From the NCBI GenBank assembly GCA_947259365.1, contig CAMYMC010000021.1, positions 59,034 to 123,033 of the forward strand: a DNA stretch of 64,000 nt. Reading direction: 5' to 3'. This document shows positions 6,367-50,038 of this stretch, one piece after another; the first letter of the stretch is position 1, and every line of letters begins with the position of its first letter. Origin of the DNA: an uncultured Acidimicrobiaceae bacterium (GTDB lineage Bacteria; Actinomycetota; Acidimicrobiia; Spongiisociales; UBA5794). Made by a program: the position numbers and the translations under genes. A model generated the notes under the pieces. The model did not search any database and was not told the DNA's origin. It worked only from the letters and a program-made list of their open reading frames with translations.

Positions 6367-6382
6367 CCGGTTCTGGGTCGAG

Positions 6383-6814
6383 TCAACCGTCGTCCTTGGC
6401 GGTGACGGTCACCACAGTGATCGGGACGGCGCGCTGGAGCCGGCTCGGGAGATCCATACGAAGCCACTGCGACAGTTTCGTCGGCAGCGTCGAGACGATG
6501 ATCTCGTCGTAGTGCTTCAGCTGCATCCGGTGCCTCGTCGCGTGCACCGGATCGTCCTCGGTCACCTCTCCGGCAGCGACGGCGCCTGTGGCGCGCAGCT
6601 CGGCCAGCACGCCCCGCAGCCGCTGCCACGCAGCCCGATGCGGGTCGTCCGGGCTCGCCGTGCCCCGCGGCCAGACCGGGACGTGCTGGCTGCGGGCGGC
6701 GTGCGGCACGAGGAAGTAGAACGCGGACGCACCGGTCTCCGCCCGCAGCAGGAGCTCCTGTTGCAGCATCTCGGTTCCGAGCGTCTGGTTCGCCACCACC
6801 AGGTAACGGCGCAT
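6383..6814 (-). CDS. conserved hypothetical protein
   Basis: 143 aa (MRRYLVVANQTLGTE...). Coding-like composition and a clean ORF. It sits immediately downstream of the MmyB-like regulator. Confidence 0.5.
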   Translation of the reverse strand: MRRYLVVANQTLGTEMLQQELLLRAETGASAFYFLVPHAARSQHVPVWPRGTASPDDPHRAAWQRLRGVLAELRATGAVAAGEVTEDDPVHATRHRMQLKHYDEIIVSTLPTKLSQWLRMDLPSRLQRAVPITVVTVTAKDDG

Positions 6815-6913
6815 CGGGCTCCTTTCCCGTGGGCGCTCTCTGCTGAGGCTACGCGCCGTGATCGGATTCCGGGATGTCCTCTTTTCGCGATCGGGGCGGC
6901 GCCGTGTCGGGCT

Positions 6914-7711: not shown

Positions 7712-7825
7712 CCCCGACCTCCTGTCGGGTGCATTATGTCGCGTGTCCTGTCCGAAGATCGATGACCCGCGAGGTCATCGATCTCATGACGAACGATGCG
7801 GGCGCAGCCCGGTGTGCCGGCGATG

Positions 7826-8239
7826 TCAGTGCGGCGGGTCCTCCGGCACGGAGTCGGGCTCGCGACCGACGGTGAACTTCAGCTCCCCGACGTCCTTCAC
7901 GTTCCAGCACAGGGTCGTGCCCCCGGCGACGGTGAGCCGGAACGGCCCTCCCTGCTCCGCCGGCAGGGTCGAACCACCGAGCGATGTCGCCAGCCATCCA
8001 CCGTCGATGATCTCTGCGATCGGGATCGAGGCGCGATAGTCCCCCGAGCGGCTGATCGCGGTGCAGAAGGCGGCGTCGGGTGCCGGCTCCGCGGCTCCGA
8101 CGACGTCGGCGAGGTGAACGGCACCTCCGACGGTACCGTCGACGACGACCGAGACGTCGGCGACGAACGACGGCAGCGATTCGAGATCCTCGCGCGACAG
8201 TGTTCCGGGCCGGGCCACCTCACCGCTGACCACGAGCAT
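7826..8239 (-). CDS. small molybdopterin-binding (sulfite-oxidase/YedY-fold) oxidoreductase-like protein
   Basis: MLVVSGEVARPGTLSREDLESLP...GGPFRLTVAGGTTLCWNVKDVGELKF resembles the Mo-cofactor oxidoreductase domain. Start trimmed to Met49 of the track ORF because the 5' extension is Arg-rich. Confidence 0.5.
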   Translation of the reverse strand: MLVVSGEVARPGTLSREDLESLPSFVADVSVVVDGTVGGAVHLADVVGAAEPAPDAAFCTAISRSGDYRASIPIAEIIDGGWLATSLGGSTLPAEQGGPFRLTVAGGTTLCWNVKDVGELKFTVGREPDSVPEDPPH

Positions 8240-8661
8240 CACGTCCTGGTTCGTCACCGCTCTCCTCCCGGCGCCTCGCTCAACTGTACGACGGCGGCGC
8301 TGGGTCATCGGTCGCGCCGGCCGGGTGGCCCGTCTCGCACCGCCTCGAGCCAGGCTTCGGGGCCCATGCTCCCCGGGGTCCATCCCTCACGCCACCACGT
8401 CGCCCCCGCCGTCGCCATCGCCGCGTTCTCGTCCGAGGCGTCGGCTCGTCAGCATGCGATCCCCCCGAGGGCGATGTCCCGTGTCAGCCCGCCGCTTCCA
8501 CGTCGGCGGCCAGCCGGCCAACGCGCGCCGGGTCGGCCCACGGCCCGAAGTTCGCGATGTCGTCGCAGTACTTCACGGGCGGTGCGGCGACCCGGAAGCG
8601 TGGAGGACGATGGCTGCGCCGGGCGCTGAGATGCATCGGCGTGTCACACGGGCCAGAGTAG

Positions 8662-10572
8662 GTGAGGCGCCGCCGCGAGGCGGTAGCCTCACCCGCTGGG
8701 AGGTCGCAGCTGAGCCTGCCAGACGACGTCGTCTACTTGTTCCGCCAGGGGACGCTCTACCGCGCCTACGACCACCTCGGGGCTCACCTCGAAGATGGGG
8801 GCTGTCGCTTCGCGGTGTGGGCGCCACACGCCTCGCACGTCGCGGTGACCGGCGATTTCAACCACTGGGACCCGGGGGCGGCGCCGATGCGTCGCGGTGA
8901 GGGGGGGCTGTGGACGACACGGGTCACGGACGTGGTCGCCGGCCAGACGTACAAGTTCGCGATCTGGACGGAAGAGGGGGACTTCGTCGAGAAGGCGGAC
9001 CCGTTCGCGGTCGCCACGGAGGTGCCGCCGAAGAGTGCATCGGTGGTGTGGCCGCTCGACTACGACTGGGGGGACGGGGAGTGGATGACGACACGGGGCG
9101 ACCGCCACCGCCTCGACGCCCCGATGTCCATCTACGAGGTGCATGCCGGCTCGTGGCGCAAGGTGGCGGTCGACGAGTCCCTCTCGTACCGCGACCTCGC
9201 CGACCCGCTCGTGGCGTATGTCACCGACATGGGCTTCACCCACGTCGAATTCCTCCCCCTGACCGAGCACCCGTACTACCCGTCGTGGGGGTACCAGGCG
9301 ACGTCGTACTTCGCCCCCACCGCCCGCTACGGCACTCCTCAGGACCTCATGTACCTCGTCGACCGTCTCCACGACGCAGGCGTCGGCGTCATCCTCGACT
9401 GGGTCCCGTCGCACTTCGCCACCGACGGCCACGGGCTCGCCTGGTTCGACGGCGCTCCCTTGTACGAGCACCCCGACTGGAGGCGCGGCTGGCATCCGGA
9501 CTGGAACAGCGCCGTCTTCGACTACGGGCGTCCCGAAGTACGCAGCTTCCTCATTTCGAGTGCCGCGTTCTGGCTGGACCGCTACCACATCGACGGGATC
9601 CGGGTCGACGCGGTCGCCTCGATGCTGTACCTCGATTACTCCAGAGGGGAAGGCGAGTGGCTGCCCAACGAGTACGGCGGCAAAGAGCACCTCGAGGCGA
9701 TCGAGTTCCTCCGCGACCTCAACAGGGCCACCTACGGCACCCACCCGGGGACGTTCACCGTCGCAGAGGAGTCGACGGCGTGGCCCAACGTGTCCCACCC
9801 GACGGACGAGGGTGGGCTCGGCTTTGGACACAAGTGGGACATGGGGTGGATGCACGACACCCTCGACTATTTCACAAAGGACCCCGTCCACCGCCGGTAT
9901 CACCAGTCGCAGCTGACGTTTCGCGGGCTCTACGCCCTCAGTGAGCATTTCATCCTCCCGCTCTCCCACGACGAGGTCGTCCACGGCAAAGGGTCGCTCT
10001 TGGCCAAGATGTCGGGCGACCGGTGGCAGCAGTTCGCCAACCTCCGGGCCCTATTCGGCTACATGTACGCGACGACCGGCAACAAGCTGGTCTTCATGGG
10101 CTCCGAACTCGGACAGTGGCCGGAGTGGAGCGTCGACGGTGAGATCGATTGGGATTGCCTCGCCGACCCGCTGCACGAGGGGATGCAGCGGTGGATCCGC
10201 GACCTCAACCACGCGTACCGGTCCAACCCGGCGCTCCACGTCGCTGACTCGGACCCGCTCGGGTTCGCCTGGACCTCGATCGACGACGCCGCGGCGTCGG
10301 TGGTCGCGTTCGAGCGGTGGGATCCAGCCACCGGCGACGTGGTCGTCTGCGTTGCCCACTTCACCCCGGCCGTCCGCGATGGGTACCGGATCGGCGTCCC
10401 CCGTGGTGGAGCATGGCGGGTGCTCCTCGACTCCGACGACGAACGGTACGGCGGCTCGGGAAGATCGTCGCAGGCGGAGGTGACCGCCGATGCCGAGCAA
10501 GCCCACGGGCGGTCGCATTCGGTGTCCCTCGACCTCCCTCCGCTCGGCGTCCTCTATCTCGCGCCCGGGTAG
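8662..10572 (+). CDS. glgB: 1,4-alpha-glucan branching enzyme
   Basis: 636 aa with a CBM48 N-terminus (YRAYDHLGAHLEDGGCRFAVWAP) and GH13 catalytic motifs (GVILDWVPSHF, GIRVDAVASMLY, EESTAWP, FILPLSHDEVVHGK). GTG start is uncertain. Confidence 0.9.
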   Translation: MRRRREAVASPAGRSQLSLPDDVVYLFRQGTLYRAYDHLGAHLEDGGCRFAVWAPHASHVAVTGDFNHWDPGAAPMRRGEGGLWTTRVTDVVAGQTYKFAIWTEEGDFVEKADPFAVATEVPPKSASVVWPLDYDWGDGEWMTTRGDRHRLDAPMSIYEVHAGSWRKVAVDESLSYRDLADPLVAYVTDMGFTHVEFLPLTEHPYYPSWGYQATSYFAPTARYGTPQDLMYLVDRLHDAGVGVILDWVPSHFATDGHGLAWFDGAPLYEHPDWRRGWHPDWNSAVFDYGRPEVRSFLISSAAFWLDRYHIDGIRVDAVASMLYLDYSRGEGEWLPNEYGGKEHLEAIEFLRDLNRATYGTHPGTFTVAEESTAWPNVSHPTDEGGLGFGHKWDMGWMHDTLDYFTKDPVHRRYHQSQLTFRGLYALSEHFILPLSHDEVVHGKGSLLAKMSGDRWQQFANLRALFGYMYATTGNKLVFMGSELGQWPEWSVDGEIDWDCLADPLHEGMQRWIRDLNHAYRSNPALHVADSDPLGFAWTSIDDAAASVVAFERWDPATGDVVVCVAHFTPAVRDGYRIGVPRGGAWRVLLDSDDERYGGSGRSSQAEVTADAEQAHGRSHSVSLDLPPLGVLYLAPG

Positions 10573-18290: not shown

Positions 18291-19514
18291 ATGGGCGCCA
18301 CCAGGCTCGCCGTGTTGGTTGCATTGGTCGCTGCGGCATGCGGCGCCGGCGGCGAAGACGGCGGGGGCAATGCCGGCTCGGGAACCTCACCACCGGCGAG
18401 CAGCCTCGCGCCGCAGTCCACGGTGGGCGAGACGACCGCTCCACCCGGCTCGAATCCGTCGACGGAGCCGTCCGTGGTGCGGCCGCCCACGGATGTGGAC
18501 CTCTCCCTGAGCAGCGTTCCGCTCGGCGACGTCTACTTCGACACGTTCGATGGCGGCTCGGTGCGTCTCAGCGACTCGACACCGGCCCTGCGCGCCCGCC
18601 TCCTCGATGCCATTCCACCGATCGACGGTCCGGTCTACGAGTCGGCGGAGTCTGCCGACTCATGGCTCGGCGCGGACGACCTCGTGCTGGGCTACGTGGG
18701 AGGCGGTCGCGCCCACGCGTTTCCCTTCCGCATCCTCAACTTCCACGAGATCGTCAACGACGTCATCGGTGACGTACCGGTGCTCGTGAGCTACTGCCCG
18801 CTGTGCCGGTCGGCGATCGTCTACGAACGTGTCGTCGGGGAAAGGGAGTTGTCGTTCGGCAACACGAGCGCGCTCTACGAGTCGGATCTCGTCATGGTCG
18901 ACCGCGAGACCTTCTCGTACTGGTGGCAGGTTGCGGGCGAAGCGATCGTTGGCGAGCTCACCAGGACGCGGCTCGAACCGCTCCCATCGACTGTGGCGAC
19001 CTGGGCGCAATGGAAACAGTCACATCCCGGCACGATCGTGCTCTCCCGGGACACCGGGTTCGAGCGGCCGTACGACCGCGACCCCTTCCTCGGCTACGAG
19101 GAGATCATCGACGAGGGTCGGTTCGCCTTCCCCGTCGGCGACGCGGCACGGGACCCGCGACTCGCCGCGTCCGCGCTCGTCGTTGCCGTCGAGGTGGGGT
19201 CGGTCGTCAGGTCCTATCCGGTCGAGCGCGTCGCTGGCCCGGTCAACGACACGGTCGACGGCGTGCCGGTGGTCGTTCTGCCGGTGACAGGCGGAGCGGC
19301 GGTCTTCTTTCCCGTGGTCGGCGGTGACGTGCTCGAATTCGTCGAATCGGGCGGGGTCTGGTCGGACACCTCCACCGGCTCGACATGGGACGGGACCGGC
19401 GCCGCGGTGGCCGGCCCGCTCGCCGGGTCCCGGTTGGAGCCGGCTCCCTCCCGCACGTCATTCTGGTTCGCCATCGTCGGTGCCTTTCCCGACACCGAGG
19501 TGTGGGCCGGGTGA
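18291..19514 (+). CDS. DUF3179 domain lipoprotein
   Basis: Lipobox LVAAACGAGG. Conserved FPFRILNFHEIVNDVIGDVPVLVSYCPLCRSA core, paralogous to the 61128..62561 gene. Confidence 0.8.
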   Translation: MGATRLAVLVALVAAACGAGGEDGGGNAGSGTSPPASSLAPQSTVGETTAPPGSNPSTEPSVVRPPTDVDLSLSSVPLGDVYFDTFDGGSVRLSDSTPALRARLLDAIPPIDGPVYESAESADSWLGADDLVLGYVGGGRAHAFPFRILNFHEIVNDVIGDVPVLVSYCPLCRSAIVYERVVGERELSFGNTSALYESDLVMVDRETFSYWWQVAGEAIVGELTRTRLEPLPSTVATWAQWKQSHPGTIVLSRDTGFERPYDRDPFLGYEEIIDEGRFAFPVGDAARDPRLAASALVVAVEVGSVVRSYPVERVAGPVNDTVDGVPVVVLPVTGGAAVFFPVVGGDVLEFVESGGVWSDTSTGSTWDGTGAAVAGPLAGSRLEPAPSRTSFWFAIVGAFPDTEVWAG

Positions 19515-20578: not shown

Positions 20579-21541
20579 ATGCAAGCGGTTTGCCGCGTCC
20601 TTCGCGCCGTGCGCTCTCGAAGAGCGCTCTGGCTCGCCGTCGGCGGCCTCGTCGCGGCCGGGTTGATGGTGCCGACGGCCGTCTGGGCGTCACACCGGTT
20701 CACCGATGTGCCGACGTCGGACGTGTTCCACAACGACATCACGTGGCTGGCCGACACCGGCGTCACCAAGGGCTGCAACCCGCCGGCGAACGATCAGTTC
20801 TGTCCGAACGACGCCGTCACCCGGGCTCAGATGTCGGCGTTCCTGCACCGGCTCGCCGTCAACCGCGTCGTCGACGCCGCATCGGTCGAGGGACTGGATG
20901 CCGCCGACCTGCTGGACAAGGCGACGTACGACCCGGACGACGACGGCGCCGTGACGAGCGCAACGAACGCTGAGCAATTCGCCGGCAAGTTCCCGAGCGA
21001 CTTCTGGCAGCGCACCGACGCCGTCGACGCCGATACCCTCGACGGTCTGGACGCGACGGCATTCCTGGGAGCGTCGGCGAAGGCGGCGGATGCCGACCTT
21101 CTCGATGGTCTCGACTCGACCCATTTCGAGGTTCGCGTCTCCGGTGCCCAGGGAACCGACCAGTCCGGCGCCGTGGTGGGATCGGCCTACAGCGCGATCC
21201 TCAACGAATCCGTCACGGTTCCGGAGTCGGGAACCGTCCTCATCACCTACCACTTCTCCGGGTTCGTCACCGGTGGCGACGCCCCGACGTCGTTCCGGGC
21301 GGGCATCGCCATCGACGACGACGCGTGTGGGACCGTGATCGCCGACACCCACGTCTACGGATCGGTCGGGCCCTTCGTCGGCAGCGACATGGGAACCGCG
21401 TCTGGTTCCTACGTTGCAGCTATGACGGCGGGGACCCACGATGTCACGTTGTGCGTGCAGACGTTCCCGACGGTGTTCATCGGCGCCGGGGTCGTGAGGC
21501 ACGCTGCGTCGGGGCTGCAGGTCGTCTTCACCGGGGTCTGA
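20579..21541 (+). CDS. secreted S-layer-homology (SLH) domain protein
   Basis: Signal peptide followed by an SLH motif (FTDVPTSDVFHNDITWLADTGVTKGC...AVTRAQMSAFLHRL). The C-terminal domain is of unknown function. Confidence 0.75.
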   Translation: MQAVCRVLRAVRSRRALWLAVGGLVAAGLMVPTAVWASHRFTDVPTSDVFHNDITWLADTGVTKGCNPPANDQFCPNDAVTRAQMSAFLHRLAVNRVVDAASVEGLDAADLLDKATYDPDDDGAVTSATNAEQFAGKFPSDFWQRTDAVDADTLDGLDATAFLGASAKAADADLLDGLDSTHFEVRVSGAQGTDQSGAVVGSAYSAILNESVTVPESGTVLITYHFSGFVTGGDAPTSFRAGIAIDDDACGTVIADTHVYGSVGPFVGSDMGTASGSYVAAMTAGTHDVTLCVQTFPTVFIGAGVVRHAASGLQVVFTGV

Positions 21542-24602: not shown

Positions 24603-25073
24603 ATGAGGACCGCGATGGTGGCCCCGACGCTGGCCGGGCTTCTCTTTGTCGCGTCGTGCGGCGCGAGTGATCCCCCGGCGGCGGAACGTGAGGCGGACCC
24701 CCCACCGGCTTCGGTCACGGCCGCCCCGGAGCCGCCGGCCGCCGGTGAGATTCGCGGCGGCATCGAGGCGCTGCAGATCGACGGGGTGTGGGTGTTCCGC
24801 CACGATCCCGATGCCGGCGATGACGCACTCCACTCCGGCACGCCCGAGATCGTCGGCGGATGTCTCTACGTCGACGACACGATCGTCGTCTGGCACGCCG
24901 ACCGGATGGGCGACGCCGCCGCCGCCGTAGCTGCCGCGAACGCCGGCGCGGATCCCCCGCTCCTCATCGGCGGGGGAGGCGTGAGCCTCGACGAAGGCGG
25001 CGACGCGACGCAGATCCCGGCCGTCATCACGCAGCGGTGCCGGACGACCGCCGTGTGGTTCGGGTCGCCGTGA
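24603..25073 (+). CDS. hypothetical lipoprotein
   Basis: AAGGAGGAGGGG RBS then ATG 24603. Lipobox LLFVASCGAS. It lies in the tail of a long antisense ORF but has its own strong RBS. Confidence 0.55.
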   Translation: MRTAMVAPTLAGLLFVASCGASDPPAAEREADPPPASVTAAPEPPAAGEIRGGIEALQIDGVWVFRHDPDAGDDALHSGTPEIVGGCLYVDDTIVVWHADRMGDAAAAVAAANAGADPPLLIGGGGVSLDEGGDATQIPAVITQRCRTTAVWFGSP

Positions 25074-25128: not shown

Positions 25129-26151
25129 GTGGAGGCGTTTCTGCGAGGGCTGCCGAAGGCCGAGCTCCATGTGCACATCGAGGGCACGCTCGAGCCCGAG
25201 CTGCTCTTCGAGATGGCGGCCCGCAACTCGGTTCCGCTGCGGTACGACGACGTCGACGAGCTGCGCGCCGCGTACCGGTTCTCCGGGCTCCAGGACTTCC
25301 TCGATGTGTACAACGAAGGAGCCACCGTGCTCCAGACGAGTCGCGACTTCACCGAGCTCGCGATCGCGTATCTGGAGCGGGCGGCGGCCGACGGGGTGCG
25401 CCGCGCCGAGATCTTCTTCGACCCCCAGACCCACACCGAGCGCGGCATCGCGATGGGCGCGGTGGTCGAAGGGCTCGCCGCGGGATGCGCCGAAGCCGGG
25501 GCCCGGCTCGGCGTCTCCACAGGGCTCATCCCCTGTTTCGTGAGACATCTCCCCCAGGAGTCGGCGATGGAAGCGCTCGAAGCGGCGCTCGCGCACCGTG
25601 AGCATCTCCTCGGCGTCGGGCTCGATTCCACGGAGCTGGGCCATCCGCCGTCCGAGTTCGCCGACGTCTTTGCCAGGGCGCGCAGCGAGGGGCTCCATGC
25701 CGTGGCCCACGCCGGGGAGGAGGGGCCGCCCGAGTACATCAGCGGCGCCCTCGACCTGCTCGGTGCGGAGCGGATCGACCACGGGGTGAGGTGCCTGGAG
25801 CACCCTGCCCTCGTCGCGCGGCTACGCGACGATGCAGTCCCGCTCACCGTGTGCCCGCTCTCCAACGTGAAGCTCGCGGTGGTGGCGCGCCTCGAGGACC
25901 ACCCCCTCCCGAAGATGATCGATGCCGGCCTCGTCGTGACGATCAACTCCGACGACCCCGCGTACTTCGGCGGATACGTCGGCGACAACTACGTCGCGGT
26001 CCACGAAGAGCTGGGGCTGGACCTGGCGGCGATGGTGGCCCTGGCCCGGGCATCGATCGAGGCGAGCTTCGCGGCCGTCGAGGTCAAGCACCGTCTCCTC
26101 ACCGATCTCGAGACGTACATCGCGGCGACGGGTGGCCAAGCCGCAGGCTGA
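25129..26151 (+). CDS. add: adenosine deaminase
   Basis: LPKAELHVHIEGTL zinc-binding motif, SLGLDSTELG, HAGE and TINSDDPAYFG, all hallmarks of adenosine/adenine deaminase. Confidence 0.85.
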   Translation: MEAFLRGLPKAELHVHIEGTLEPELLFEMAARNSVPLRYDDVDELRAAYRFSGLQDFLDVYNEGATVLQTSRDFTELAIAYLERAAADGVRRAEIFFDPQTHTERGIAMGAVVEGLAAGCAEAGARLGVSTGLIPCFVRHLPQESAMEALEAALAHREHLLGVGLDSTELGHPPSEFADVFARARSEGLHAVAHAGEEGPPEYISGALDLLGAERIDHGVRCLEHPALVARLRDDAVPLTVCPLSNVKLAVVARLEDHPLPKMIDAGLVVTINSDDPAYFGGYVGDNYVAVHEELGLDLAAMVALARASIEASFAAVEVKHRLLTDLETYIAATGGQAAG

Positions 26152-26175: not shown

Positions 26176-27570
26176 TCAGGCGGCCGAAGGGTCGGTGACC
26201 TGGCCGAGGAAGAGGATCTCGCCGGTCGACGTGCTCTCGATCCAGAAGAGGAACGGGCGGTCGACGGTGAGCGCCGCCGGCTGGGGGAGCGACGTGATCC
26301 CGAAGACGAGCGCCGTGGCGGCCGCAGCCTCGGTCCCGTCTTCGTCGAGGGCGATGAACGTCTTGTGGAGCGCATCCTGGACGTAGAGGTCCCTCGGCTC
26401 GGTGATCCCGGTGAGGTCGGCGGTGCCGTCGTCGCCGGGCACCGGCACCACGAATGCGGTGTTCATCCCCAGCGCCTGGAGGGCGGCCTTGAGTCCCACG
26501 TCGGACTCGAACTCGAATCGGGGCATCGCCAGCTCGACCTGGAAGTCACCCCAGGCGACGGCGAGGTCGTCTGCGGTGATTCGGGCCGCCAGCTCGGCGG
26601 GGGACCCGGCCCGGGGCACGGCGACGACCATCGCCGCGTCTCCGGCGTAGCGGAGGCGCACCGCTTCGAAGAGATCGGTGGCGGCGTAGCCGGTGCGCAT
26701 GTCGGCGTGCATCATCGGCACCTCGACCGTGGTCCCGTCGAGGCGGGTGAACGGCGCCGGTGCGGTGCGCTCCGGGTCGAAGGGGACCTCCCAGTTCGCC
26801 CTGAACCAGATGGCATTCACGAGGACGAGACGCGTCAACGTGGTGATGACGCCGTCGGGGATGAGGTCCTCGATCCGGCCCTCGGTGGCGTCTTCGACCC
26901 AGCCGTTGATGATGTCAGCCGATGCGTCCGGAGCGGAGGCGAAGTCGACGAGGCGGAGCCCGGCGCCGTAGCTCGTCGCCAGCCGCTCGAGGTAGGGCTC
27001 GAGAAACGGGTAGCCGCCCTGCCCCCACGCCGAGTTGGCCGGCCGGACGACGAAGGGCTCGCGGGTGTCCTCCTCGCCGGCGGGGGCGGCCTTCGACGCG
27101 AGAGCCCCCTCGATGTGCGTCCGCACCCTGTGCATGGCCTCCTCGTCGCCGGTGAGGTGAAGAACGGCCGCAATCTCGGCGGCGGTGGTGTTGCGTGCTC
27201 CCGGCAACAGCATCGAGAGCGCCGTCGCCACCGAGTACGGCGAGATCATGACGTTGTCGTCTCCGGCGACGACGCCGAGCAGGTCGAGGCCGAAAGCGGC
27301 ATCGGCCCGGGCGACGGCGGCCAGCTCGGATTCAGTGACGGCGACGTCCGCGATCGGTGCGTCGAAGCGGACGACCTCGCCCGGTACGAAGGGGACGGCA
27401 CCGGGTGTGGGGTCCGGCGCGGGCGGCGAGCCGGGAGGTGTCGAGCCGGGAGACGTCGAGTCGGGGGTGCGGCCCGGCGGCGTCGCCGCGTCGTCTGCCC
27501 CGGCGCAGGCTGCGGCGATCAGCGAGATGACGGCGAACGCGGCTGCGACCCTGCTCCGGTCCATACCCAT
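26176..27570 (-). CDS. serpin (serine protease inhibitor) family lipoprotein
   Basis: 464 aa from ATG 27570. Lipobox LIAAACAG. Serpin core motifs (NAIWFRANWEVPFD, TEAAAATA hinge region, reactive centre loop before PFLFWIE). Confidence 0.8.
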   Translation of the reverse strand: MGMDRSRVAAAFAVISLIAAACAGADDAATPPGRTPDSTSPGSTPPGSPPAPDPTPGAVPFVPGEVVRFDAPIADVAVTESELAAVARADAAFGLDLLGVVAGDDNVMISPYSVATALSMLLPGARNTTAAEIAAVLHLTGDEEAMHRVRTHIEGALASKAAPAGEEDTREPFVVRPANSAWGQGGYPFLEPYLERLATSYGAGLRLVDFASAPDASADIINGWVEDATEGRIEDLIPDGVITTLTRLVLVNAIWFRANWEVPFDPERTAPAPFTRLDGTTVEVPMMHADMRTGYAATDLFEAVRLRYAGDAAMVVAVPRAGSPAELAARITADDLAVAWGDFQVELAMPRFEFESDVGLKAALQALGMNTAFVVPVPGDDGTADLTGITEPRDLYVQDALHKTFIALDEDGTEAAAATALVFGITSLPQPAALTVDRPFLFWIESTSTGEILFLGQVTDPSAA

Positions 27571-27625
27571 CAGACGCTGGGACCGGCCGATCCGGTTCCC
27601 GACCCGTGCCGCAACGCCCGCCGCC

Positions 27626-28405
27626 TCACGAGAAGACGGTGTTGGGCCTGTCCTCTTTGACGCCGTCGAGGCGGATGTCGACCTTCTCGTTGTAGAACGA
27701 CAGATACCCGGCGATCCGGGAGGTCTCCTCGACCGGGGACGGGTACCACCACACGATGTTCTCGTACCGGGCGCCGTCGACATCGACGTGGTAGTAGCTC
27801 GCCGTGCCCTTGTACGGGCACGAGGTGTGCAGGTCCGACGGCTCGAGGAGGTCCATCCGCACGTCGGTCTTCGGGATGTAGTAGCGGGTCGGGAGGCCGG
27901 TTTCGAACACGAACCTGGCATTCGTCGAGTCGGCCACCTTCGTGCCGCCGACGAAGACCTCCACACGGCGGGAGCTGGGGAGCACGTCGACGCGGGTATA
28001 CGGGTCGCGGGGATGGACGTACACCTGCTCGTCCTCCTCGAACCACGCGTCCATCGCCCCCCAGGAGAAGGTGAGGTGGCCTTCGAGGCCCTCGATCTTG
28101 CTCTCGGTGTACCAGCGTGCGGCTCCGGGGGCCTCTTTGCCCCCGGCCTTGACGGTGTGGAGCTCGGCATCGCCGCGGCTCGGCGAGTGGTGCGTCTCAC
28201 CGGTGGGGATGAGCAGATCGGTGTCGACATCGTCCGCGAGGAAGTAGTACGTGGGGTAGAACGGCTTCTCCCAGACGAGCTTCACCCGGATCGTGTCGGC
28301 GACGAGCTCGCCGCCGAGATAGACCCGAACCCGCTTGCCCCCGTTCTCGACGCGCACCCGTCCCCGGGCTGCGGTGGCGTCCATGTCGTGCTCCCTCGTC
28401 GTCAT
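27626..28405 (-). CDS. DUF427 domain protein (two tandem repeats)
   Basis: Duplicated RVRVYLGGELVADT / RVEVFVGGTKVADS modules typical of DUF427. ATG 28405 preceded by GGGGAA. Confidence 0.7.
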   Translation of the reverse strand: MTTREHDMDATAARGRVRVENGGKRVRVYLGGELVADTIRVKLVWEKPFYPTYYFLADDVDTDLLIPTGETHHSPSRGDAELHTVKAGGKEAPGAARWYTESKIEGLEGHLTFSWGAMDAWFEEDEQVYVHPRDPYTRVDVLPSSRRVEVFVGGTKVADSTNARFVFETGLPTRYYIPKTDVRMDLLEPSDLHTSCPYKGTASYYHVDVDGARYENIVWWYPSPVEETSRIAGYLSFYNEKVDIRLDGVKEDRPNTVFS

Positions 28406-28509
28406 GTCGTTCCCCATCCGAACGCGTTCCGGCAGCGAACGATTCCCGGGACCGGGCATCTCGCCCCGGCGGAGTGGCAAACTGAGGTGACCCGACCCGA
28501 GAGAGCCGC

Positions 28510-30957
28510 GTGCGAATCCTCATCGCAGACTCCTTCCCCGGGCCTCAGATCGAGCGTCTCGAGGCCATGGGCCACGACGTCACCGTCGATCCGGGCCGGG
28601 ATGCCGGCGCGCTGGCGGAGGTCGTCGCCGGCTACGAAGCCCTCGTCGTGCGCAGTACCAAGGTGACGGCGGAGACGATCGAGGCTGCCGACCGCCTCGC
28701 CCTCATCGTCCGGGCCGGCGCCGGGGTGAACACGATCGACACGAGGGCGGCTGCGGACCACGGCGTCATCGTGGCCAACACGCCTGGCAAGAACGCCGTC
28801 GCCGTCGCCGAGTTGACGATGGGTCTCATCATGGCGATCGACCGCAGCATCCCTGACAACGTGGCGGAGCTCCGGGCGGGGGTGTGGAACAAGAAGCGCT
28901 GGTCGGAGGCCGACGGACTCCACGGCAAGCGCCTCGGCATCGTCGGCATGGGTGCCATCGGGGCCGAGGTCGCTCGCCGGGCGCATGCGTTCGGGATGGA
29001 GATCGTCGTCGTCGACCGCCCGGGCCGGCGACCGGAAGTCGGCGCCCTCATCGAGGATCTCCGTTGCCGGCTCGTGCCCGATCTCCCCAGGCTGCTGGGG
29101 ACGTCCGACATCGTGACGTTTCACATCCCGGCATCCGGCAACACCGCCGGCATGATCAACCGAGAGATGCTCGGCCATCTGCGGCTGGGCACCGTCCTCA
29201 TCAACACGTCCCGGGGCGACATCATCGACGAGGAGGCGCTTCTCGAGGCGATCGAGGCCAAGGGCCTGCGCGTCGGCCTCGACGTGTACGCCGACGAACC
29301 CGGGGAGGGCTCGGGCACCTTCACCTCGGCGCTCGCCGCCCATCCCAACGTGTACGGGACCCACCACATCGGGGCGTCGACGAAGCAGGCGCAGCGGTCC
29401 ATCGCCGACGAAGTCGTCGCCATCATCGAGAGCTTCGGGCGCGGTGCGGTGAGAAACGCGGTGAACGTCGCTGCCGAGCCGGTCGGAGCGTCAGTCATCA
29501 CGGTGCGCCACTACGACAGGGTCGGCGTGCTCGCTGGGGTCCTCGAGGTGCTGCGTCGCGCCAATCTCAACGTGGAGCAGATGGAGAACACCGTATTCGC
29601 CGGGGCCAATGCGGCGAGCGCGTCGATCCACCTCTCTGCGCTTCCCGACTCGGCAACCGTCGAGGCCATCTCCGGGCTCGAGCACGTCATCGCGGTCTCC
29701 GTCGGCGCGGTCGGCGCCTCGAGCGCCCTCGTGCGGCCCTTCCCCGGGTTCCTGCCCCGGCCGGACATCGCCGACGAGGTAGCGGCGCCTCCGCTGTCGG
29801 TCATCACCGCGGATCGATACGACCGCCTCGTCGCCGACCACCCGCTGTCGATTCTCCACGTTCTCCGCACCGCGATCGACACCGCCGACGGGGTGCCGGA
29901 TCCGGCACTCGCCGACGCCCACGGCGCCGCGCACCTCGCCCGGCTCATCGACGATGGCGCCCTCTTGCCCCAGCCTGCTCCTGCCTACTACCTGTACCGG
30001 GTCGGCACGCAGCAGGGTTCCCACATCGGCGTCATCGCCGAGGTCGCCACGTCGGGGATCGGTGAAGGGACGGTGCGCCGACACGAGGGCACCAGGCGTG
30101 AAACCGAGGACCTCGTCCTGCGCCACCTCACGACCGTGCGTGCCCACACCGACCCGGTGGCGATGACGTATCGCACCGACCCGGGTCTCGCCGACGTCCT
30201 CACCGCCCGCTGCGCCGCCGAGACCCCCGTCCTCGACTTCGAGTCGGACGACGGGGTCCGTCACCAACTGTGGGTTGTCGCAGATGCGGCCGGTGTCAAC
30301 GAAATCGGGACCCGCCTCGCCATGGTCGAGACGCTGTACATCATCGACGGGCACCACCGTTCGGTGGCGGCGCGGAGGCTGGCTGCCACCGAGGCCTCCG
30401 AGAACCGGGGCCACACGGGAGCGGAGCCGTACAACTACTTCCCGGCGGTGCTCTTCGCCGAGGACCAGCTCGTGCTCGAGGGCTACCACCGGGCCCTCAC
30501 CGATCTCGGATCGATGACACCGCGCGAGTTCCTCGCTTCGATGCGAGACAGGTTCGACGTCGAGGACCTCGCCATACCGTGGGCCGAGGAGGCGCGGCCC
30601 CGCGAGCCGGGAGCGGTCGCCATGGTCGTCGACGGCGAGTGGTACCGGGTCACGCTGCCGAAGCCGCCCGCAGACGGCGACGTCTACGCCCGACTCGACG
30701 CCGTCGTGCTCCAGGAGCACATCCTCGGACCGCTGCTCGGCATCACCGAGCCCGCCACCGATCCGAGACTCCAGTACGTCCCCGGCCCCGCCGGCCTCGG
30801 CGAGTTCAGCCGACTCAGTGCGATCGTCGGATTCGCCCTCCACCCGCCGTCGACCGCCGAGGTGATGGCGGTCGCGGATGAGGGCCTCGTCATGCCGCCG
30901 AAGTCCACCTGGTTCGAGCCCAAGGTCCGCGCCGGGCTCGTCGTCCGGAAGTTCTGA
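28510..30957 (+). CDS. serA: D-3-phosphoglycerate dehydrogenase (SerA, with ACT domain) fused in-frame to a DUF1015 domain
   Basis: The first ~395 aa carry the Rossmann motif GIVGMGAIGAEVARRA, catalytic NTSRGDIIDEEAL / HIGASTKQAQ and an ACT domain. A DUF1015 module (LVRPFPGFLPRPD...YIIDGHHR...LQEHILGPLLGI) follows with no stop codon. The whole is one 815-aa ORF. Confidence 0.75.
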   Translation: MRILIADSFPGPQIERLEAMGHDVTVDPGRDAGALAEVVAGYEALVVRSTKVTAETIEAADRLALIVRAGAGVNTIDTRAAADHGVIVANTPGKNAVAVAELTMGLIMAIDRSIPDNVAELRAGVWNKKRWSEADGLHGKRLGIVGMGAIGAEVARRAHAFGMEIVVVDRPGRRPEVGALIEDLRCRLVPDLPRLLGTSDIVTFHIPASGNTAGMINREMLGHLRLGTVLINTSRGDIIDEEALLEAIEAKGLRVGLDVYADEPGEGSGTFTSALAAHPNVYGTHHIGASTKQAQRSIADEVVAIIESFGRGAVRNAVNVAAEPVGASVITVRHYDRVGVLAGVLEVLRRANLNVEQMENTVFAGANAASASIHLSALPDSATVEAISGLEHVIAVSVGAVGASSALVRPFPGFLPRPDIADEVAAPPLSVITADRYDRLVADHPLSILHVLRTAIDTADGVPDPALADAHGAAHLARLIDDGALLPQPAPAYYLYRVGTQQGSHIGVIAEVATSGIGEGTVRRHEGTRRETEDLVLRHLTTVRAHTDPVAMTYRTDPGLADVLTARCAAETPVLDFESDDGVRHQLWVVADAAGVNEIGTRLAMVETLYIIDGHHRSVAARRLAATEASENRGHTGAEPYNYFPAVLFAEDQLVLEGYHRALTDLGSMTPREFLASMRDRFDVEDLAIPWAEEARPREPGAVAMVVDGEWYRVTLPKPPADGDVYARLDAVVLQEHILGPLLGITEPATDPRLQYVPGPAGLGEFSRLSAIVGFALHPPSTAEVMAVADEGLVMPPKSTWFEPKVRAGLVVRKF

Positions 30958-30968: not shown

Positions 30969-31820
30969 ATGGCCACAGACGTCGTCCTGCTCGGAACCGG
31001 CACGCCCCGCACCGTCCCGGGGAGCAGCGGCCCGGCGACGGCCGTGATCGCCGACGGCACGCCGTATGTCTTCGATTGCGGGCCGGGGGTCGCGATCCAG
31101 CTCTCCTCCGGATTCCATCACGGGATCGAGGGGCTCGCGTTGGCGGGTGTCGAGCACGTCTTCATCACCCACCTCCACTCGGACCACACCCTCGGCCTGG
31201 CGTCGCTGATGCTGACGCCGTGGATGTTCGGACGGGCGGTTCCGCTCGTGGTGCGGGGCCCGCTCGGCACGGCGGCGATGGCACGCCACGTCGCCGCGGC
31301 ATACGAGGCCGACGTCGCCAAGCGGATCCACAGTGAGCCGCTCGAACCCGGAGGTCACGCAGTGGTAGCAACCGACATCGGGCCCGGGGTCGTCCACGAG
31401 GACGATCGCGTCAGCGTCGAGGCGTTTGCCGTCGAGCACGGCGACTGGGTGGCGGCGGTGCACGGGCCGACGCCGGCCCTCGGCTACCGGGTGCGCTCCG
31501 CCGACCGCACCGTCGTCATCTCGGGAGACACCGGTCCGTTCCCCTCCATGGAGGCGACGTACGGAGGCTGTGACGTGCTCGTCCACGAGGTCTACTCGAG
31601 CGCCGGCCTCGTCTCCCGTCCCCCTCGATGGCGGGCCTATCACGAGCGAGCGCACACCTCGGGCGAGACGTTGGGCCGGCTGGCGGCGCGGCTCCAGCCC
31701 GGGATCCTCGTGCTCACGCATCAGTTGCTGTGGAACACCCCCGAGGGCGACCTCGTCGACGAGGTCGCCGGCGTCTACGACGGCGTCGTGCGCTACGGCC
31801 GCGACCTCGACGTGATCTGA
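30969..31820 (+). CDS. MBL-fold metallo-hydrolase (RNase Z/ElaC-like)
   Basis: HxHxDH motif (ITHLHSDHTLG) and overall beta-lactamase fold. Confidence 0.8.
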   Translation: MATDVVLLGTGTPRTVPGSSGPATAVIADGTPYVFDCGPGVAIQLSSGFHHGIEGLALAGVEHVFITHLHSDHTLGLASLMLTPWMFGRAVPLVVRGPLGTAAMARHVAAAYEADVAKRIHSEPLEPGGHAVVATDIGPGVVHEDDRVSVEAFAVEHGDWVAAVHGPTPALGYRVRSADRTVVISGDTGPFPSMEATYGGCDVLVHEVYSSAGLVSRPPRWRAYHERAHTSGETLGRLAARLQPGILVLTHQLLWNTPEGDLVDEVAGVYDGVVRYGRDLDVI

Positions 31821-41239: not shown

Positions 41240-41914
41240 TCAGGGTGAGCCGGCTCCGGGGACGACGAGGCCGCTCTCGTAGGCGACGACGACCGCCTGG
41301 ACCCGGTCGCGCAGGTCGAGCTTGGTGAGGATGTGCGAGACGTGGGTCTTGATCGTCGTCTCACTCACGTAGAGCGCCGTGGCCATCTCGGCGTTGGACA
41401 TACCCTTGGCGAGGTGGCGCAGCACCTCCGTCTCCCTCTCGGTGAGGTCGGCGAAACCGGCGTGGGGCCGGGCGGCGCCGGGCCGTCTGGCAAACTCCTC
41501 GATGAGCCGCCTCGTCACCGACGGCGCCAGCAACGCATCGCCGCCGGCCACGATCCTCACCGCGTTCACGAGGTCGTCGGGCGGGGTGTCCTTGAGGAGG
41601 AACCCGCTCGCGCCGGCCCGGAGCGCGTCGTAGACGTAGTCGTCGAGGTCGAACGTCGTGAGAATGATCACGCGCGGCTGAGGGTCGAGGTCGGTCCGGC
41701 AGATCTCCTCGGTGGCGGCGAGCCCGTCCATCTCGGGCATCCGCACGTCCATGAGGACGACGTCGGGCCGTTCCCGCTTCGCCGCGGAGACCGCCTGCAC
41801 GCCGTTGTCGGCCTCGGCGACGACCTCGAGATCGGGTTCGGCCTCGAGGATCATCTTGAAGCCCGTCCGCACCAGCGCCTGGTCGTCGGCGACGACGACC
41901 CGGATGGTGTTCAT
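41240..41914 (-). CDS. NarL/LuxR-family response regulator
   Basis: Receiver domain (VVADDQALVR...VVLMDVRMPEMDG) and LuxR HTH (LTERETEVLRHLAKGMSNAEMA). ATG 41914 overlaps the kinase stop. Confidence 0.9.
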   Translation of the reverse strand: MNTIRVVVADDQALVRTGFKMILEAEPDLEVVAEADNGVQAVSAAKRERPDVVLMDVRMPEMDGLAATEEICRTDLDPQPRVIILTTFDLDDYVYDALRAGASGFLLKDTPPDDLVNAVRIVAGGDALLAPSVTRRLIEEFARRPGAARPHAGFADLTERETEVLRHLAKGMSNAEMATALYVSETTIKTHVSHILTKLDLRDRVQAVVVAYESGLVVPGAGSP

Positions 41915-43113
41915 GTGCCGATCGGGATGACGGCCCGGACCCGGTACCCGCCGCCGGCGCGAGGTCCGGTGGAGATGTCCCCTTCGAGCATGGAGACTCG
42001 CTCGCGCATGCCGACGATGCCGTGCCCCTCCCCGTTGCCGCCGCCGAGACCTCGTGCTGCTCCCCTCCCGTCGTCGATGACCTCGATCTCGAGGTCGGCC
42101 TCGCCGAAGGTGAGCCGGACGCTGGCTCGGACGGTCGGGCCGCCGTGCTTGAGCGTGTTGGTGAGGGACTCCTGGATGATCCTGTAGGCGTTGAGGTCGA
42201 CACCCGCAGGCAGCGGGCGGGGATCGCCGGCGATGGCGACTGAGACGGCGAGGCCGGCCTCTTCCATCTGGTCGACCAGGCCGCCGAGTCTGCCGAGGCC
42301 GGGCTGCGGAGCGAGCTCCGCCGGGTTGTCCTCGTCGCGGAGCAGCCCGAGCAACCGGCGCATCTCCTGGAGCGCCTCGTGACCGGACGTCTCGATGGTC
42401 GCGAGAGCGTCCTCGGCCTGGTCCGGGTCGCGGTGGACGGTCTTGCGTGCCGCCGCCGCCTGGATCGTCATCACCGTCATCTCGTGGGCGACCACGTCGT
42501 GGAGCTCGCGGGCGATCCTCCCCCGCTCGGCACGAACCGCCTCCGAGGCGCGGGCCTCCCGCTCGTGCTCGGCCCGCTCGGCCCGCATCGAGGCCGCCGA
42601 CTCGGCTCTCCGGCTCTCGTGGATGTCGCGCCCGAGGAGGAACGGCAGTCCGGTGAGAGCCGCGAGCGACACCGCCGACTCCCAGCCCACGCCCTCCTGA
42701 ACCGCAACTCCGAGCAGCGTGAAGCCGACGACGACGATGAAGCCGACGATGCCGGTGACGAGCGATGCCCGCCGTTCGAGGTCGCTCCCGGCGGCGTGGA
42801 AGGCGAAGCCGAGCGCGAAGAGGGCGAGGGTCGCCGGGTACTCGGCGAGGCGGTCGACCATGAAGGCGAGGATCGTCGTCGTCACCACCGTCGCCGGCAG
42901 CCGTCGCCGCAGCGCCAGCGGCAGGGTCATCGCCAGGGTGAGGGCGACGGCCCATCCGTCGGGCTCGCGGTGAGGCCCGATCGGCTCGGTCCCGACGAGG
43001 AGCTGGGCGATCCCGATCCCGGCGAGGACGACGGCGAACATCGCGTCGATCCAGTAGTTCGGGCCGCGTCTCTCCACGTCCTCATCGTACGGCCGGCCGC
43101 CGAGACGCCGCAT
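41911..43113 (-). CDS. sensor histidine kinase (HisKA_3 / NarX-DesK type)
   Basis: N-terminal TM helices. H-box ERGRIARELHDVVAHEMT. HATPase_c G-boxes (VIDDGRG, GHGIVGMRER). Confidence 0.85.
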   Translation of the reverse strand: MRRLGGRPYDEDVERRGPNYWIDAMFAVVLAGIGIAQLLVGTEPIGPHREPDGWAVALTLAMTLPLALRRRLPATVVTTTILAFMVDRLAEYPATLALFALGFAFHAAGSDLERRASLVTGIVGFIVVVGFTLLGVAVQEGVGWESAVSLAALTGLPFLLGRDIHESRRAESAASMRAERAEHEREARASEAVRAERGRIARELHDVVAHEMTVMTIQAAAARKTVHRDPDQAEDALATIETSGHEALQEMRRLLGLLRDEDNPAELAPQPGLGRLGGLVDQMEEAGLAVSVAIAGDPRPLPAGVDLNAYRIIQESLTNTLKHGGPTVRASVRLTFGEADLEIEVIDDGRGAARGLGGGNGEGHGIVGMRERVSMLEGDISTGPRAGGGYRVRAVIPIGT

Positions 43114-49983: not shown

Positions 49984-49999
49984 CGAAGCTTGCTGGATT

Positions 50000-50029
50000 G
50001 GTGGGGCCGCCGATACCGGCGGCCCCACC
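50000..50029 (+). other. perfect 12-bp stem-loop between the SBP and first permease genes
   Basis: GGTGGGGCCGCC-gatacc-GGCGGCCCCACC, with no U-tract. Typical of intercistronic mRNA-stabilising hairpins after ABC binding-protein genes. Confidence 0.5.
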
Positions 50030-50038
50030 TGCATACGA

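Follow-up and report, generated by a model that had tools for sequence, protein, structure and literature searches.

A predicted surface-tethered lipoprotein serpin of inhibitory type in an environmental Acidimicrobiia bacterium

Introduction

Little is known of what serpins do in prokaryotic physiology, and most of the prokaryotic proteins bear N-terminal transport peptides, membrane anchors included (PMC8233489). A lipoprotein serpin has already been characterised in miropin of Tannerella forsythia, a surface-displayed inhibitor with Lys368 at P1 (bioRxiv 10.1101/2025.09.05.674453), which uses more than one bond of its loop and is anchored in the outer membrane of a diderm Bacteroidota host living in humans. 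Among actinobacteria, the serpins of Bifidobacterium (B. longum; B. breve SerU) are extracytoplasmic and inhibitory and are thought to protect surface proteins, and that of B. breve is controlled by the adjacent SerRK two-component system (PMC7822027). Chloropin of Chlorobium limicola (PDB 8gxv) carries a P1 Arg that was confirmed by mass spectrometry and numbered Arg383, and its activity is accelerated by DNA and heparin (PMC10090351). In archaea, Tk-serpin and Pnserpin inhibit subtilisin-like or chymotrypsin-like proteases of their own organisms (PMC8233489), which provides a precedent for an endogenous protease/serpin pair, although these are proteins of thermophiles and not lipoproteins. 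Very few natural protease/serpin pairs have been defined in bacteria so far.

The serpin described here is encoded in a 64-kb stretch of Acidimicrobiia DNA that was analysed at its full length (hereafter, the window). It is of a kind already known from miropin, but its organism is an environmental one, unlike the gut commensal Bifidobacterium, and the family to which it belongs in Acidimicrobiia is experimentally unstudied; no paper pairing Acidimicrobiia with a serpin was found in the literature. Throughout this class of abundant and for the most part uncultured actinobacteria, there is a uniform family of inhibitory-type serpins that are predicted to be anchored and have unusual P1 residues (Thr or Glu); some members are immediate neighbours of a tethered S1C protease or of a two-component system. 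Paired loci of this type are candidates for an endogenous bacterial serpin target, while the gain for the window gene itself is small and lies chiefly in an accurate annotation and in dropping a horizontal-transfer reading.

The Serpin Gene and Its Surroundings

Three genes make up the immediate locus:
26176..27570, minus strand: serpin coding sequence, 464 amino acids plus stop; Pfam PF00079 (E=3e-93); GC3 0.907
27626..28417, minus strand: DUF427 gene, Pfam PF04248, on the same strand and 55 bp before the serpin start
25129..26151, plus strand: adenosine deaminase gene, Pfam PF00962 (E=6.7e-90), convergent with the serpin

The two neighbours are those already named from the letters alone. The serpin frame starts at the ATG at 27570, with a second in-frame ATG at 27564, and stops at 26176-26178 on the minus strand, and no other in-frame start occurs upstream of the serpin ATG as far back as the DUF427 stop. 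The GC3 value backs this coding frame. An opposite-strand open reading frame of 431 amino acids (26365-27660) was set aside as a high-GC artefact, since it is the minus-strand frame that has the coding-type GC3 and the domain match. The DUF427 gene and the serpin are possibly co-transcribed. No terminator-like site was detected between them by a terminator scan, in which the single such site around the serpin fell inside DUF427 on the other strand, and a promoter scan around the serpin gene returned 0 promoter-like sites.

Architecture and Fold of the Protein

From its N-terminus to its C-terminus, the protein comprises the following elements, all on the minus strand:
27508..27570: signal peptide, residues 1-21 (MGMDRSRVAAAFAVISLIAAA), with a positive n-region (R5, R7) and a hydrophobic h-region
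27505..27522: lipobox L17-I-A-A-A-C22, whose Cys22 is predicted to be lipidated and to begin the mature protein
27391..27504: Pro/Thr/Ser-rich disordered tether, residues 23-60, from composition and the AF2 model
27304..27390: family-specific conserved N-terminal extension, residues 61-89, preceding helix A, with the motif F-x-P-G-E-V-V-R-x-D-x-P
26188..27303: serpin domain, residues 90-461, from Pfam, PDB sequence and Foldseek matches
26278..26343: reactive-centre loop, P17 Glu410 to P5' Pro431 (EDGTEAAAATALVFGITSLPQP), with an invariant hinge and variable P4-P1, P2' and P4'
26290..26295: predicted scissile bond between P1 Thr426 and P1' Ser427, 17 residues counted from P17
26239..26271: PROSITE signature PS00284, LTVDRPFLFWI, residues 434-444, a regular-expression match to the full pattern

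The sequence-only reading had called this a full-length serpin, and the domain searches agree: the PF00079 match scores 313 bits against a cut-off of 27 and spans profile positions 3-370 of 370, so that, with PS00284, the protein belongs to the serpin superfamily (PF00079 / MEROPS I4); NCBIfam returned no family for this protein. A PDB sequence search gave 202 serpin matches, headed by chloropin (2.5e-56), for which no lipoprotein anchor has been described, and followed by the leukocyte elastase inhibitor SERPINB1 (clade B; 4ga7, 1e-51), a eukaryotic, intracellular protein without a signal peptide. The likeness to SERPINB1 reflects a conserved serpin 'hub' and not recent common ancestry (PMC8233489). 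The AF2 model (pLDDT 87.3, pTM 0.82) retrieved only serpins as its top Foldseek matches (TM ~0.9, rmsd ~2 A), among them the miropin structures 5ncu, 5nct and 5ncw at TM ~0.9, although the structural alignment gives only ~32% identity between miropin and the window serpin.

Within the domain, residues S110, P111, S113, N252, W260 and H402 are invariant in a 58-sequence alignment of the family. By motif, they presumably correspond to the shutter/breach residues Ser53, Pro54, Ser56, Asn186, Trp194 and His334 of alpha-1-antitrypsin. The segment PFLFWIE (residues 439-445), which had been labelled a shutter region, is instead the C-terminal s4B/s5B signature within PS00284; this label was the single descriptive error in the sequence-only reading.

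Proposed Function and Candidate Targets

With a probability of about 0.8, the protein leaves the cytoplasm by the Sec pathway, is lipidated at Cys22 and acts, tethered to the surface, as a suicide inhibitor of extracytoplasmic serine proteases. After export and lipid modification, a flexible tether of ~40 residues would fix the serpin to the outside of the cytoplasmic membrane in the monoderm Acidimicrobiia cell. A serine protease would attack Thr426-Ser427, or a site beside it, in the exposed reactive-centre loop, upon which the hinge (P15-P9, GTEAAAA) would insert into beta-sheet A and trap the acyl-enzyme, and the protease would be irreversibly inactivated at the cell surface. In this way, the serpin most likely keeps extracytoplasmic serine proteases of the wall zone in check or removes them. 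Two groups of presumed targets can be proposed, namely the lipoprotein-tethered S1C proteases of the cell itself (Trypsin_2, HtrA-like without PDZ), which adjoin the serpin in some relatives, and proteases released by neighbouring organisms.

The observation that no partner protease gene is adjacent to the serpin holds, and it extends to the whole 64-kb window, in which Pfam scans of ~50 proteins found no protease domain and catalytic motifs of the S1 or S8 type were absent from all called genes in a motif scan. HExxH occurs once in the window, in a protein of the metallo-beta-lactamase fold (30969-31820), and a protein without a Pfam family (3186-4043) shows a loose signal-peptidase-like motif. 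The window serpin is thus not part of a protease/serpin operon. Across bacterial serpin loci with usable flanks, an open reading frame with an S1 motif lay within 6 kb in 2/40, and the S8 motif in 0/40; the metagenome-scan loci, mostly serpins of 35-45% identity from other lineages on short contigs, served as background for this protease-adjacency count and not for family synteny.

These counts favour a narrower reading that we regard as possible, but to which we give well under an even chance, namely defence against foreign proteases only, in which the tethered serpin shields surface proteins from proteases of competitors, predators or hosts and has no endogenous partner. The same role has been proposed for miropin, itself a surface lipoprotein that inhibits the proteases of another species, and for the Bifidobacterium serpins. 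Moreover, P1 and the neighbouring specificity residues change fast between close relatives, as would be expected if targets vary: P1, mostly Thr or Glu among the homologues, changes from one close relative to the next in groups obtained by average-linkage clustering, the residues being Thr, Glu, Val, Leu, Ile and Arg, and a single conserved endogenous target is therefore hard to reconcile with the family.

Against a purely foreign target stands one related locus, L016. There, a 527-aa lipoprotein protease of the Trypsin_2 (S1C) type, with a GNSGGS motif and a T-rich linker, is encoded at 6378-7961, and its gene stops 40 bp short of the serpin gene at 8001-9341, which has the same orientation. 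This is the only locus in which protease/serpin adjacency was directly seen; from equal lengths and the same sources, we infer three more same-contig pairs (3199, 17352 and 30337 bp), and together these loci suggest that one subclade or more has an endogenous target. The L016 serpin has a Glu at P1, not the Thr of the window serpin. The L016 protease belongs to a large family of Acidimicrobiia, 109/120 members of which bear a lipobox, and tblastn with this protease revealed no homologue in the window. Restriction to foreign proteases differs from the suicide inhibitor proposed above in the origin of the target alone and is compatible with it.

Two relatives (L015 and L019) resemble the protease-responsive SerRK circuit, as their serpin genes are immediately preceded by those of an OmpR-type response regulator and a histidine kinase with HAMP, a resemblance that fits defence against foreign proteases. 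The idea that this two-component system is the HtrA-adjacent one of L012, L013 and L016 was rejected, the regulators sharing 38% identity and the kinases ~30%. Unlike the Bifidobacterium serpin genes, the window serpin is adjoined by no two-component system and, thus, its locus is not of the SerRK type with adjacent regulator and kinase. The sole two-component pair of the window (41240-43113) lies 14 kb from the serpin and has a HisKA_3-type kinase, its regulator being identified from the N-terminal sequence alone.

A more far-reaching proposal, which we consider rather unlikely, is that the serpin family and the S1C proteases form a dedicated system for the control of proteolysis at the monoderm surface, in which the tethered serpin would irreversibly titrate tethered S1C proteases of the same cell. 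Both partners would stand on similar Thr/Pro-rich stalks, the adjacent two-component sensor would set expression in some lineages, and the switching of P1 between Thr, Glu, Val and Leu would track the specificities of paralogous proteases. If true, this would give a defined endogenous role to the serpins of prokaryotes, a group still described as enigmatic in function.

Lipoprotein Signal and Tether

The N-terminus of the window serpin has the features of a bacterial lipoprotein, with a charged n-region, an h-region, a lipobox Cys and a conserved +1 Cys. The hydrophobic stretch covers residues 8-21, where the AF2 model places a helix at 5-20, and both the PROSITE PS51257-type rule and the G+LPPv2 pattern matched with Cys22. 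A lipobox with the same signal-peptide layout is present in 109/110 full-length homologues, the one apparent exception (P0080) being a miscalled start. The tether holds 12 Pro, 5 Thr and 4 Ser in 38 residues (23-60), and residues 21-59 are disordered in the AF2 model (pLDDT <50). These pattern tests, together with the composition, bear out the lipobox and the Pro/Thr-rich tether read from the sequence, and an extracytoplasmic location is supported as a prediction; lipidation of Cys22 and display at the surface are likewise predicted from these features. Within the 64-kb window, neither an lgt nor an lspA gene was found.

It is improbable, though not without some basis in the sequence, that signal peptidase I instead cuts after A19-A20-A21 and releases the serpin into the medium: an A-x-A motif directly precedes Cys22, and the residue at -3 of the lipobox is Ala and not the classical Leu, Val or Ile. 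Nevertheless, the +1 Cys is invariant across 58 aligned homologues and the lipobox almost universal, neither of which a signal peptidase I site needs, and in the homologues the Cys is always followed by a low-complexity T/P/S spacer of variable length, typical of tethered actinobacterial lipoproteins.

Between tether and domain, the N-terminal extension lies outside the Pfam serpin match; AF2 gives it an ordered structure that includes a short strand (67-69). Its residues F61, G64 and D70 are invariant or nearly so in the 58-sequence alignment. To our knowledge, miropin has neither a Pro/Thr-rich tether nor such an F-x-P-G-E-V extension.

Hinge, Reactive-Centre Loop and P1

The hinge motif is the mark of inhibitory competence according to Spence et al. 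(PMC8233489). In the window serpin, it reads E410-D-G-T-E-A-A-A-A-T419, with TEAAAATA at residues 413-420, and the family consensus E-x-G-T-E-A-A-A-A-T (P17-P8) is invariant at P17, P15-P12, P10 and P9 in 119 homologues, with Ala at P11 in 117/119 and Thr at P8 in 118/119. The loop has the canonical length, as it aligns without gaps to SERPINB1 and nearly so to chloropin, which shares the same hinge, and the distance from P17 to D-R-P-F is 27 residues in 113/119 family members. The hinge first noticed in the letters is intact and of inhibitory type.

Aligning the loop, a step already suggested for predicting P1, gave Thr426. In the PDB sequence alignments, Thr426-Ser427 pairs with Arg-Ser of chloropin and with Cys-Met of SERPINB1; the aligned chloropin Arg was equated with P1 through the 17-residue count in the 8gxv chain, not through shared numbering, and the SERPINB1 residue is Cys344, which we take to be its P1. 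More fully, Ile425-Thr426-Ser427 stands opposite Phe-Cys-Met of SERPINB1, a serpin that acts on chymotrypsin-like and elastase-like enzymes through two neighbouring reactive sites. A Thr at P1 is unusual, as compared with Arg in chloropin and Lys in miropin, and the true scissile bond could lie at the better conserved P2 Leu/Ile; the multiple bonds used by miropin offer a plausible model for the Ile425/Thr426 pair. Both the position of the bond and inhibition itself are predictions from the loop sequence.

Some serpins, such as the eukaryotic ovalbumin and HSP47, are non-inhibitory, and these characteristically lose the small-residue hinge. The atypical Thr at P1, the absence of a known target and the AF2 model, which places the loop in the sheet, could be taken to mean that the window serpin likewise keeps the fold for another surface role, e.g., as a chaperone or binding protein. 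The inserted loop is regarded as a modelling bias and at most shows that the loop is compatible with insertion. Moreover, P15 Gly, P14 Thr and the Ala residues at P12, P10 and P9 never vary in the homologues and P11 hardly does, the loop length is canonical, and variability among the core columns is close to its highest at P4-P1, P2' and P4' (78th-92nd entropy percentile) while hinge entropy is zero. Variable specificity positions next to a fixed hinge are the usual pattern of a functional inhibitor, and we consequently give a non-inhibitory role very little credence.

Family and Inheritance

The best 120 homologues share 56-85% identity and the same architecture and come from Acidimicrobiia where named; no named close homologue falls outside Acidimicrobiia and Actinomycetes. 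A scan of GTDB genomes recovered one locus of the family (L001, 49% identity), the other seven loci being distant serpins of 31-34% identity (Bacteroidota, Firmicutes and others). GC and GC3 of the serpin (0.713/0.907) lie within one SD of the window genes (0.692+-0.035/0.884+-0.039). Furthermore, a 14-kb block around the serpin is collinear with a related metagenomic contig (L009/L010), in which the neighbours are 71-97% identical to those of the window and the serpin 85%, a divergence within the range of the neighbours.

These results, together with phylogenetics by Spence et al. that found no evidence of horizontal transfer for prokaryotic serpins (PMC8233489), do not support the framing of the sequence-only reading, in which bacterial serpins are sporadic and usually laterally acquired. 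The serpin locus lacks deviant composition, mobility genes and a synteny break, and, on sequence grounds, the serpin is an unexceptional member, handed down vertically, of a large family that runs through the environmental Acidimicrobiia. Vertical carriage in relatives alongside a known partner had also been envisaged; inheritance indeed looks vertical, but there is no conserved partner. A recent horizontal acquisition that dropped the serpin between housekeeping genes is very improbable, since the differing genomic neighbourhoods of family members, one MAG with two paralogues (one beside an integrase-like gene) and the horizontal origin proposed in older literature (summarised in PMC8233489) stand against the average composition, the collinear block with its evenly diverged serpin, the taxonomy of the named homologues, the phylogenetics cited above and the absence of any tRNA, integrase or repeat near the serpin, the tRNA and Rfam scans of the 64-kb window being empty. 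Across 13 family loci, no neighbour gene is conserved, and the adjacency of DUF427 and adenosine deaminase to the serpin is shared with the closest relative alone.

Serpin fold and export signal

The minus-strand gene at 26176-27570 most probably (roughly 0.8) encodes an inhibitory serpin that is anchored and acts on serine proteases outside the cytoplasm, and its product carries every feature of an inhibitory serpin and of a lipoprotein that can be tested in sequence. The gene, the parts of its product and its immediate neighbours are as follows.

Features of the serpin and its locus
26176-27570, minus strand: serpin coding sequence, 464-aa product
Residues 1-21: signal peptide, with Arg5/Arg7 and a hydrophobic core
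Residues 17-22: lipobox L17-I-A-A-A-C22, passing both the PROSITE lipoprotein rule and the G+LPPv2 pattern for Gram-positive bacteria
Residues 23-60: tether, with 12 Pro, 5 Thr and 4 Ser among 38 residues
27304-27390, minus strand (residues 61-89): ordered, family-specific N-terminal extension F-x-P-G-E-V-V-R-x-D-x-P, preceding helix A
55 bp upstream of the serpin, same strand: DUF427 gene, with no terminator between
Adjoining the serpin, convergent: adenosine deaminase gene

The stop-to-stop ORF extends to 28230, its upstream portion overlapping the DUF427 gene in a different frame, and the ATG at 27570 is the first usable one after the DUF427 stop, with a second ATG two codons on. A complete Pfam Serpin domain spans residues 90-461 (313 bits, E=3e-93) and aligns to profile positions 3-370 of 370; no model matched in the NCBIfam scan. 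A PDB sequence search matched 202 distinct serpins, headed by chloropin from Chlorobium limicola (8gxv, 2.5e-56) and human SERPINB1 (4ga7, 1e-51). The AlphaFold2 model, with 58 homologues as input, reached a mean pLDDT of 87.3 and a pTM of 0.82, and its best Foldseek matches in the PDB are all serpins (TM ~0.9 on target, rmsd ~2 A). The complete domain, the PDB matches and the serpin-like model bear out the claim of the sequence-only reading that this is a full-length serpin. In the model, loop residues 412-424 are inserted as a strand, cleaved serpins being the closest likeness; this is treated as the predictor's known bias towards the more stable state, which says nothing on the native protein.

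The lipobox and Pro/Thr-rich tether, likewise claimed from the sequence, hold under both pattern rules and by composition, and residues 21-59 are disordered in the model. The Pfam serpin model does not reach the extension at residues 61-89, which links the tether to helix A.

Reactive-centre loop and its variation in the family

The TEAAAATA hinge noted earlier is present within E410-D-G-T-E-A-A-A-A-T419. Counting 17 residues from P17, the predicted loop places Thr426 at P1, Ser427 at P1', Ile425 at P2 and Phe423 at P4. In the HMMER alignment, Thr426-Ser427 stand opposite the Arg-Ser of chloropin, whose P1 Arg has been established by mass spectrometry (PMC10090351). The SERPINB1 loop aligns without gaps, with Ile-Thr-Ser facing Phe-Cys-Met. 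PROSITE PS00284 is matched by LTVDRPFLFWI (residues 434-444), so that the PFLFWIE segment, formerly labelled as shutter, belongs instead to the C-terminal s4B/s5B signature. Residues S110, P111, S113, N252, W260 and H402 are invariant across the family, and we take them to be the shutter/breach residues equivalent to Ser53, Pro54, Ser56, Asn186, Trp194 and His334 of alpha-1-antitrypsin.

When 5.8 billion proteins were searched, 5787 of the candidates scored matched at E<=1e-10. The top 120 share 56-85% identity with the window serpin over nearly the whole length and mostly have 435-460 aa; those with names are nearly all 'serpin family protein [Acidimicrobiia bacterium]', with one 'Actinomycetes' and one 'bacterium'. 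Among these 120, a lipobox followed by a Thr/Pro/Ser-rich spacer occurs in 109 of the 110 full-length members, and in the apparent exception (P0080) an in-frame start farther upstream yields a perfect lipobox.

Across 119 homologues, positions P17, P15-P12, P10 and P9 are invariant, and Ser occupies P1' in 111, Pro P3' in 108 and Leu P2 in 79. At P1, Thr (58) and Glu (49) predominate, followed by Val (6), Leu (4), Arg (1) and Ile (1). Column entropy is zero at the hinge and lies at the 78th-92nd percentile of the serpin core at P4, P2, P1, P2' and P4'. Clustering on the loop-masked scaffold separates broad Thr-type and Glu-type groups, and the switch also occurs between close relatives with the same synteny (P0079, LTS, versus P0032, LES). 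One MAG, GCA_947259275.1, holds two family paralogues with unlike loops, P0011 (LES) and P0059 (VTS), at loci L012 and L102, and an integrase-like gene adjoins the second. The G-L-T-S-x-P loop recurs in many distant environmental serpins of 35-45% identity (metagenome loci L031-L096) and is thus widespread rather than peculiar to the window serpin; this shared core suggests a widespread, uncharacterised Thr-P1 specificity class.

A P1 Thr, or the Val, Ile or Leu of relatives, would suit elastase-like, alpha-lytic-like or HtrA-type S1 enzymes, which prefer small or beta-branched aliphatic residues, and the Glu found at P1 in the sister group would match S1 enzymes specific for Glu. SERPINB1 and miropin each have dual sites; by analogy, the better-conserved P2 Leu/Ile could be the real P1, directed at subtilisin- or chymotrypsin-like enzymes.

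Origin of the gene

Lateral acquisition, proposed by the sequence-only reading, is not supported. GC is flat at ~0.70 across the region, and both the GC (0.713 versus 0.692+-0.035 for window genes) and the GC3 (0.907 versus 0.884+-0.039) of the serpin lie within one standard deviation. Its closest homologue, P0001 (85% identity), is found on metagenomic contigs (L009/L010) that stay collinear with the window for 14 kb or more, in the common order flavodoxin, DUF3179, luciferase-like, UbiX, UbiD, small lipoprotein, adenosine deaminase, serpin, DUF427, dehydrogenase-DUF1015 and metallo-beta-lactamase. Neighbour identities in this block are 71-97%, a range that includes the 85% of the serpin. No tRNA, integrase or repeat was found at the locus, and the tRNA scan of the whole window was empty; in composition, synteny and mobility genes, the locus lacks the marks of a horizontally acquired island. 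Moreover, neither phylogeny nor composition gave Spence et al. evidence for horizontal transfer of prokaryotic serpins, most of which, they note, carry N-terminal transport peptides, membrane anchors included (PMC8233489).

Partner genes and probable target

Adenosine deaminase and DUF427 are the immediate neighbours, as originally described, and the absence of an adjacent partner protease extends to the entire 64-kb window: Pfam scans of ~50 window proteins revealed no protease, and a catalytic-motif scan (S1, S8, HExxH and others) of every called gene detected no S1 or S8 motif. Its two matches look like chance: an HERAH in the metallo-beta-lactamase-fold protein at 30969-31820 and, in a protein without Pfam family at 3186-4043, a loose motif resembling that of signal peptidases. 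Among 40 bacterial serpin loci flanked by 2 kb or more on each side, an S1-motif ORF lies within 6 kb in two and a subtilase motif in none; an 'orphan' serpin is therefore the rule and not an anomaly. Neighbours vary across 13 family loci, and thus there is no conserved operon.

Relatives show two associations. In L016, the serpin (8001-9341) is preceded on the same strand, at a distance of 40 bp, by the gene for a 527-aa Trypsin/Trypsin_2 protein (6378-7961, plus strand) that has the lipobox VAGGC, the active-site motif GNSGGS and a spacer rich in Thr. Its family, annotated as S1-C protease and found in Acidimicrobiia, Chloroflexota and Actinomycetes, gave 1574 matches at E<=1e-10 among the candidates scored, with a lipobox in 109 of the best 120. 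Three more protease/serpin pairs have the same source and equally long contigs (P0123/P0042, 3199 bp; P0130/P0078, 17352 bp; P0255/P0047, 30337 bp), from which we infer that each pair shares a contig; for P0123/P0042, a shared contig of just 3199 bp would mean adjacency. The serpins of all four pairs are of the Glu-P1 type. In L015 (8158-9968) and L019 (6027-7963), the serpin is preceded on its own strand by genes for a response regulator of OmpR type and a histidine kinase with HAMP domain, which stop 33-38 bp short of it. This pair resembles SerRK, which controls the serpin SerU in Bifidobacterium breve (PMC7822027). It is not orthologous (38% and ~30% identity) to the one beside HtrA in L012, L013 and L016, which lies 5-10 kb from the serpin. 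The window serpin itself stands in neither a protease/serpin operon nor a SerRK-type locus.

The fold, hinge, loop length and lipobox, and their conservation, are shown; from established knowledge of serpins and actinobacterial lipoproteins, the protein would be exported by Sec, lipid-anchored, held outside the cytoplasmic membrane on a flexible stalk, and would trap serine proteases via classical loop insertion. An endogenous, surface-bound target is plausible, since a tethered S1C protease adjoins the serpin in relatives. Action against foreign proteases fits equally well, since P1 changes rapidly and a partner gene is usually lacking, although in at least one subclade the S1C protease suggests a target made by the cell itself. 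That a dedicated system of tethered protease and tethered serpin applies to the window serpin itself is rather unlikely.

Functionally, this predicted anchored inhibitor comes closest to miropin, a lipoprotein serpin on the surface of Tannerella forsythia; taxonomically, its nearest analogues are the Bifidobacterium serpins, and chloropin is the closest solved structure by sequence. The literature search found no paper linking Acidimicrobiia with serpins, and the family is thus uncharacterised, although its kind is already known.

Other features of the window

Further observations on the window
18495-19514, plus strand: DUF3179 protein
20609-21541, plus strand: secreted protein with a single S-layer homology (SLH) domain
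24603-25073, plus strand: 156-aa lipoprotein, lipobox FVASC, without Pfam family
28510-30957, plus strand: 815-aa ORF, dehydrogenase-DUF1015 fusion
About 48000-53000: stretch of GC 0.61-0.63, versus 0.70 elsewhere
55751-59071, plus strand: mannosylglycerate synthesis genes
61128-62561, plus strand: second DUF3179 protein, with a lipoprotein signal and a long N-terminal extension

The 156-aa lipoprotein, two genes from the serpin, is kept at the same place in L009/L010 with 75% identity. The SLH domain occurs here in an actinobacterial genome, and SLH-annotated proteins are also near family serpins in L014 and L101. In the 815-aa ORF, a module resembling D-3-phosphoglycerate dehydrogenase (2-Hacid_dh, NAD-binding, ACT) is joined to a complete DUF1015 domain, an arrangement also present in L010 and called as two genes in L009, which hints at a functional link of DUF1015 with 2-hydroxyacid or serine metabolism. 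The low-GC stretch encodes the solute-binding protein and two permeases of a sugar ABC transporter, together with a LacI-like regulator and a right-handed beta-helix/NosD-like protein, and may be an acquired island. At 55751-59071, a mannosylglycerate synthase (single-step route) directly precedes the two-step route, which consists of mannosyl-3-phosphoglycerate synthase and HAD phosphatase, and thus both routes to the compatible solute mannosylglycerate are encoded side by side.
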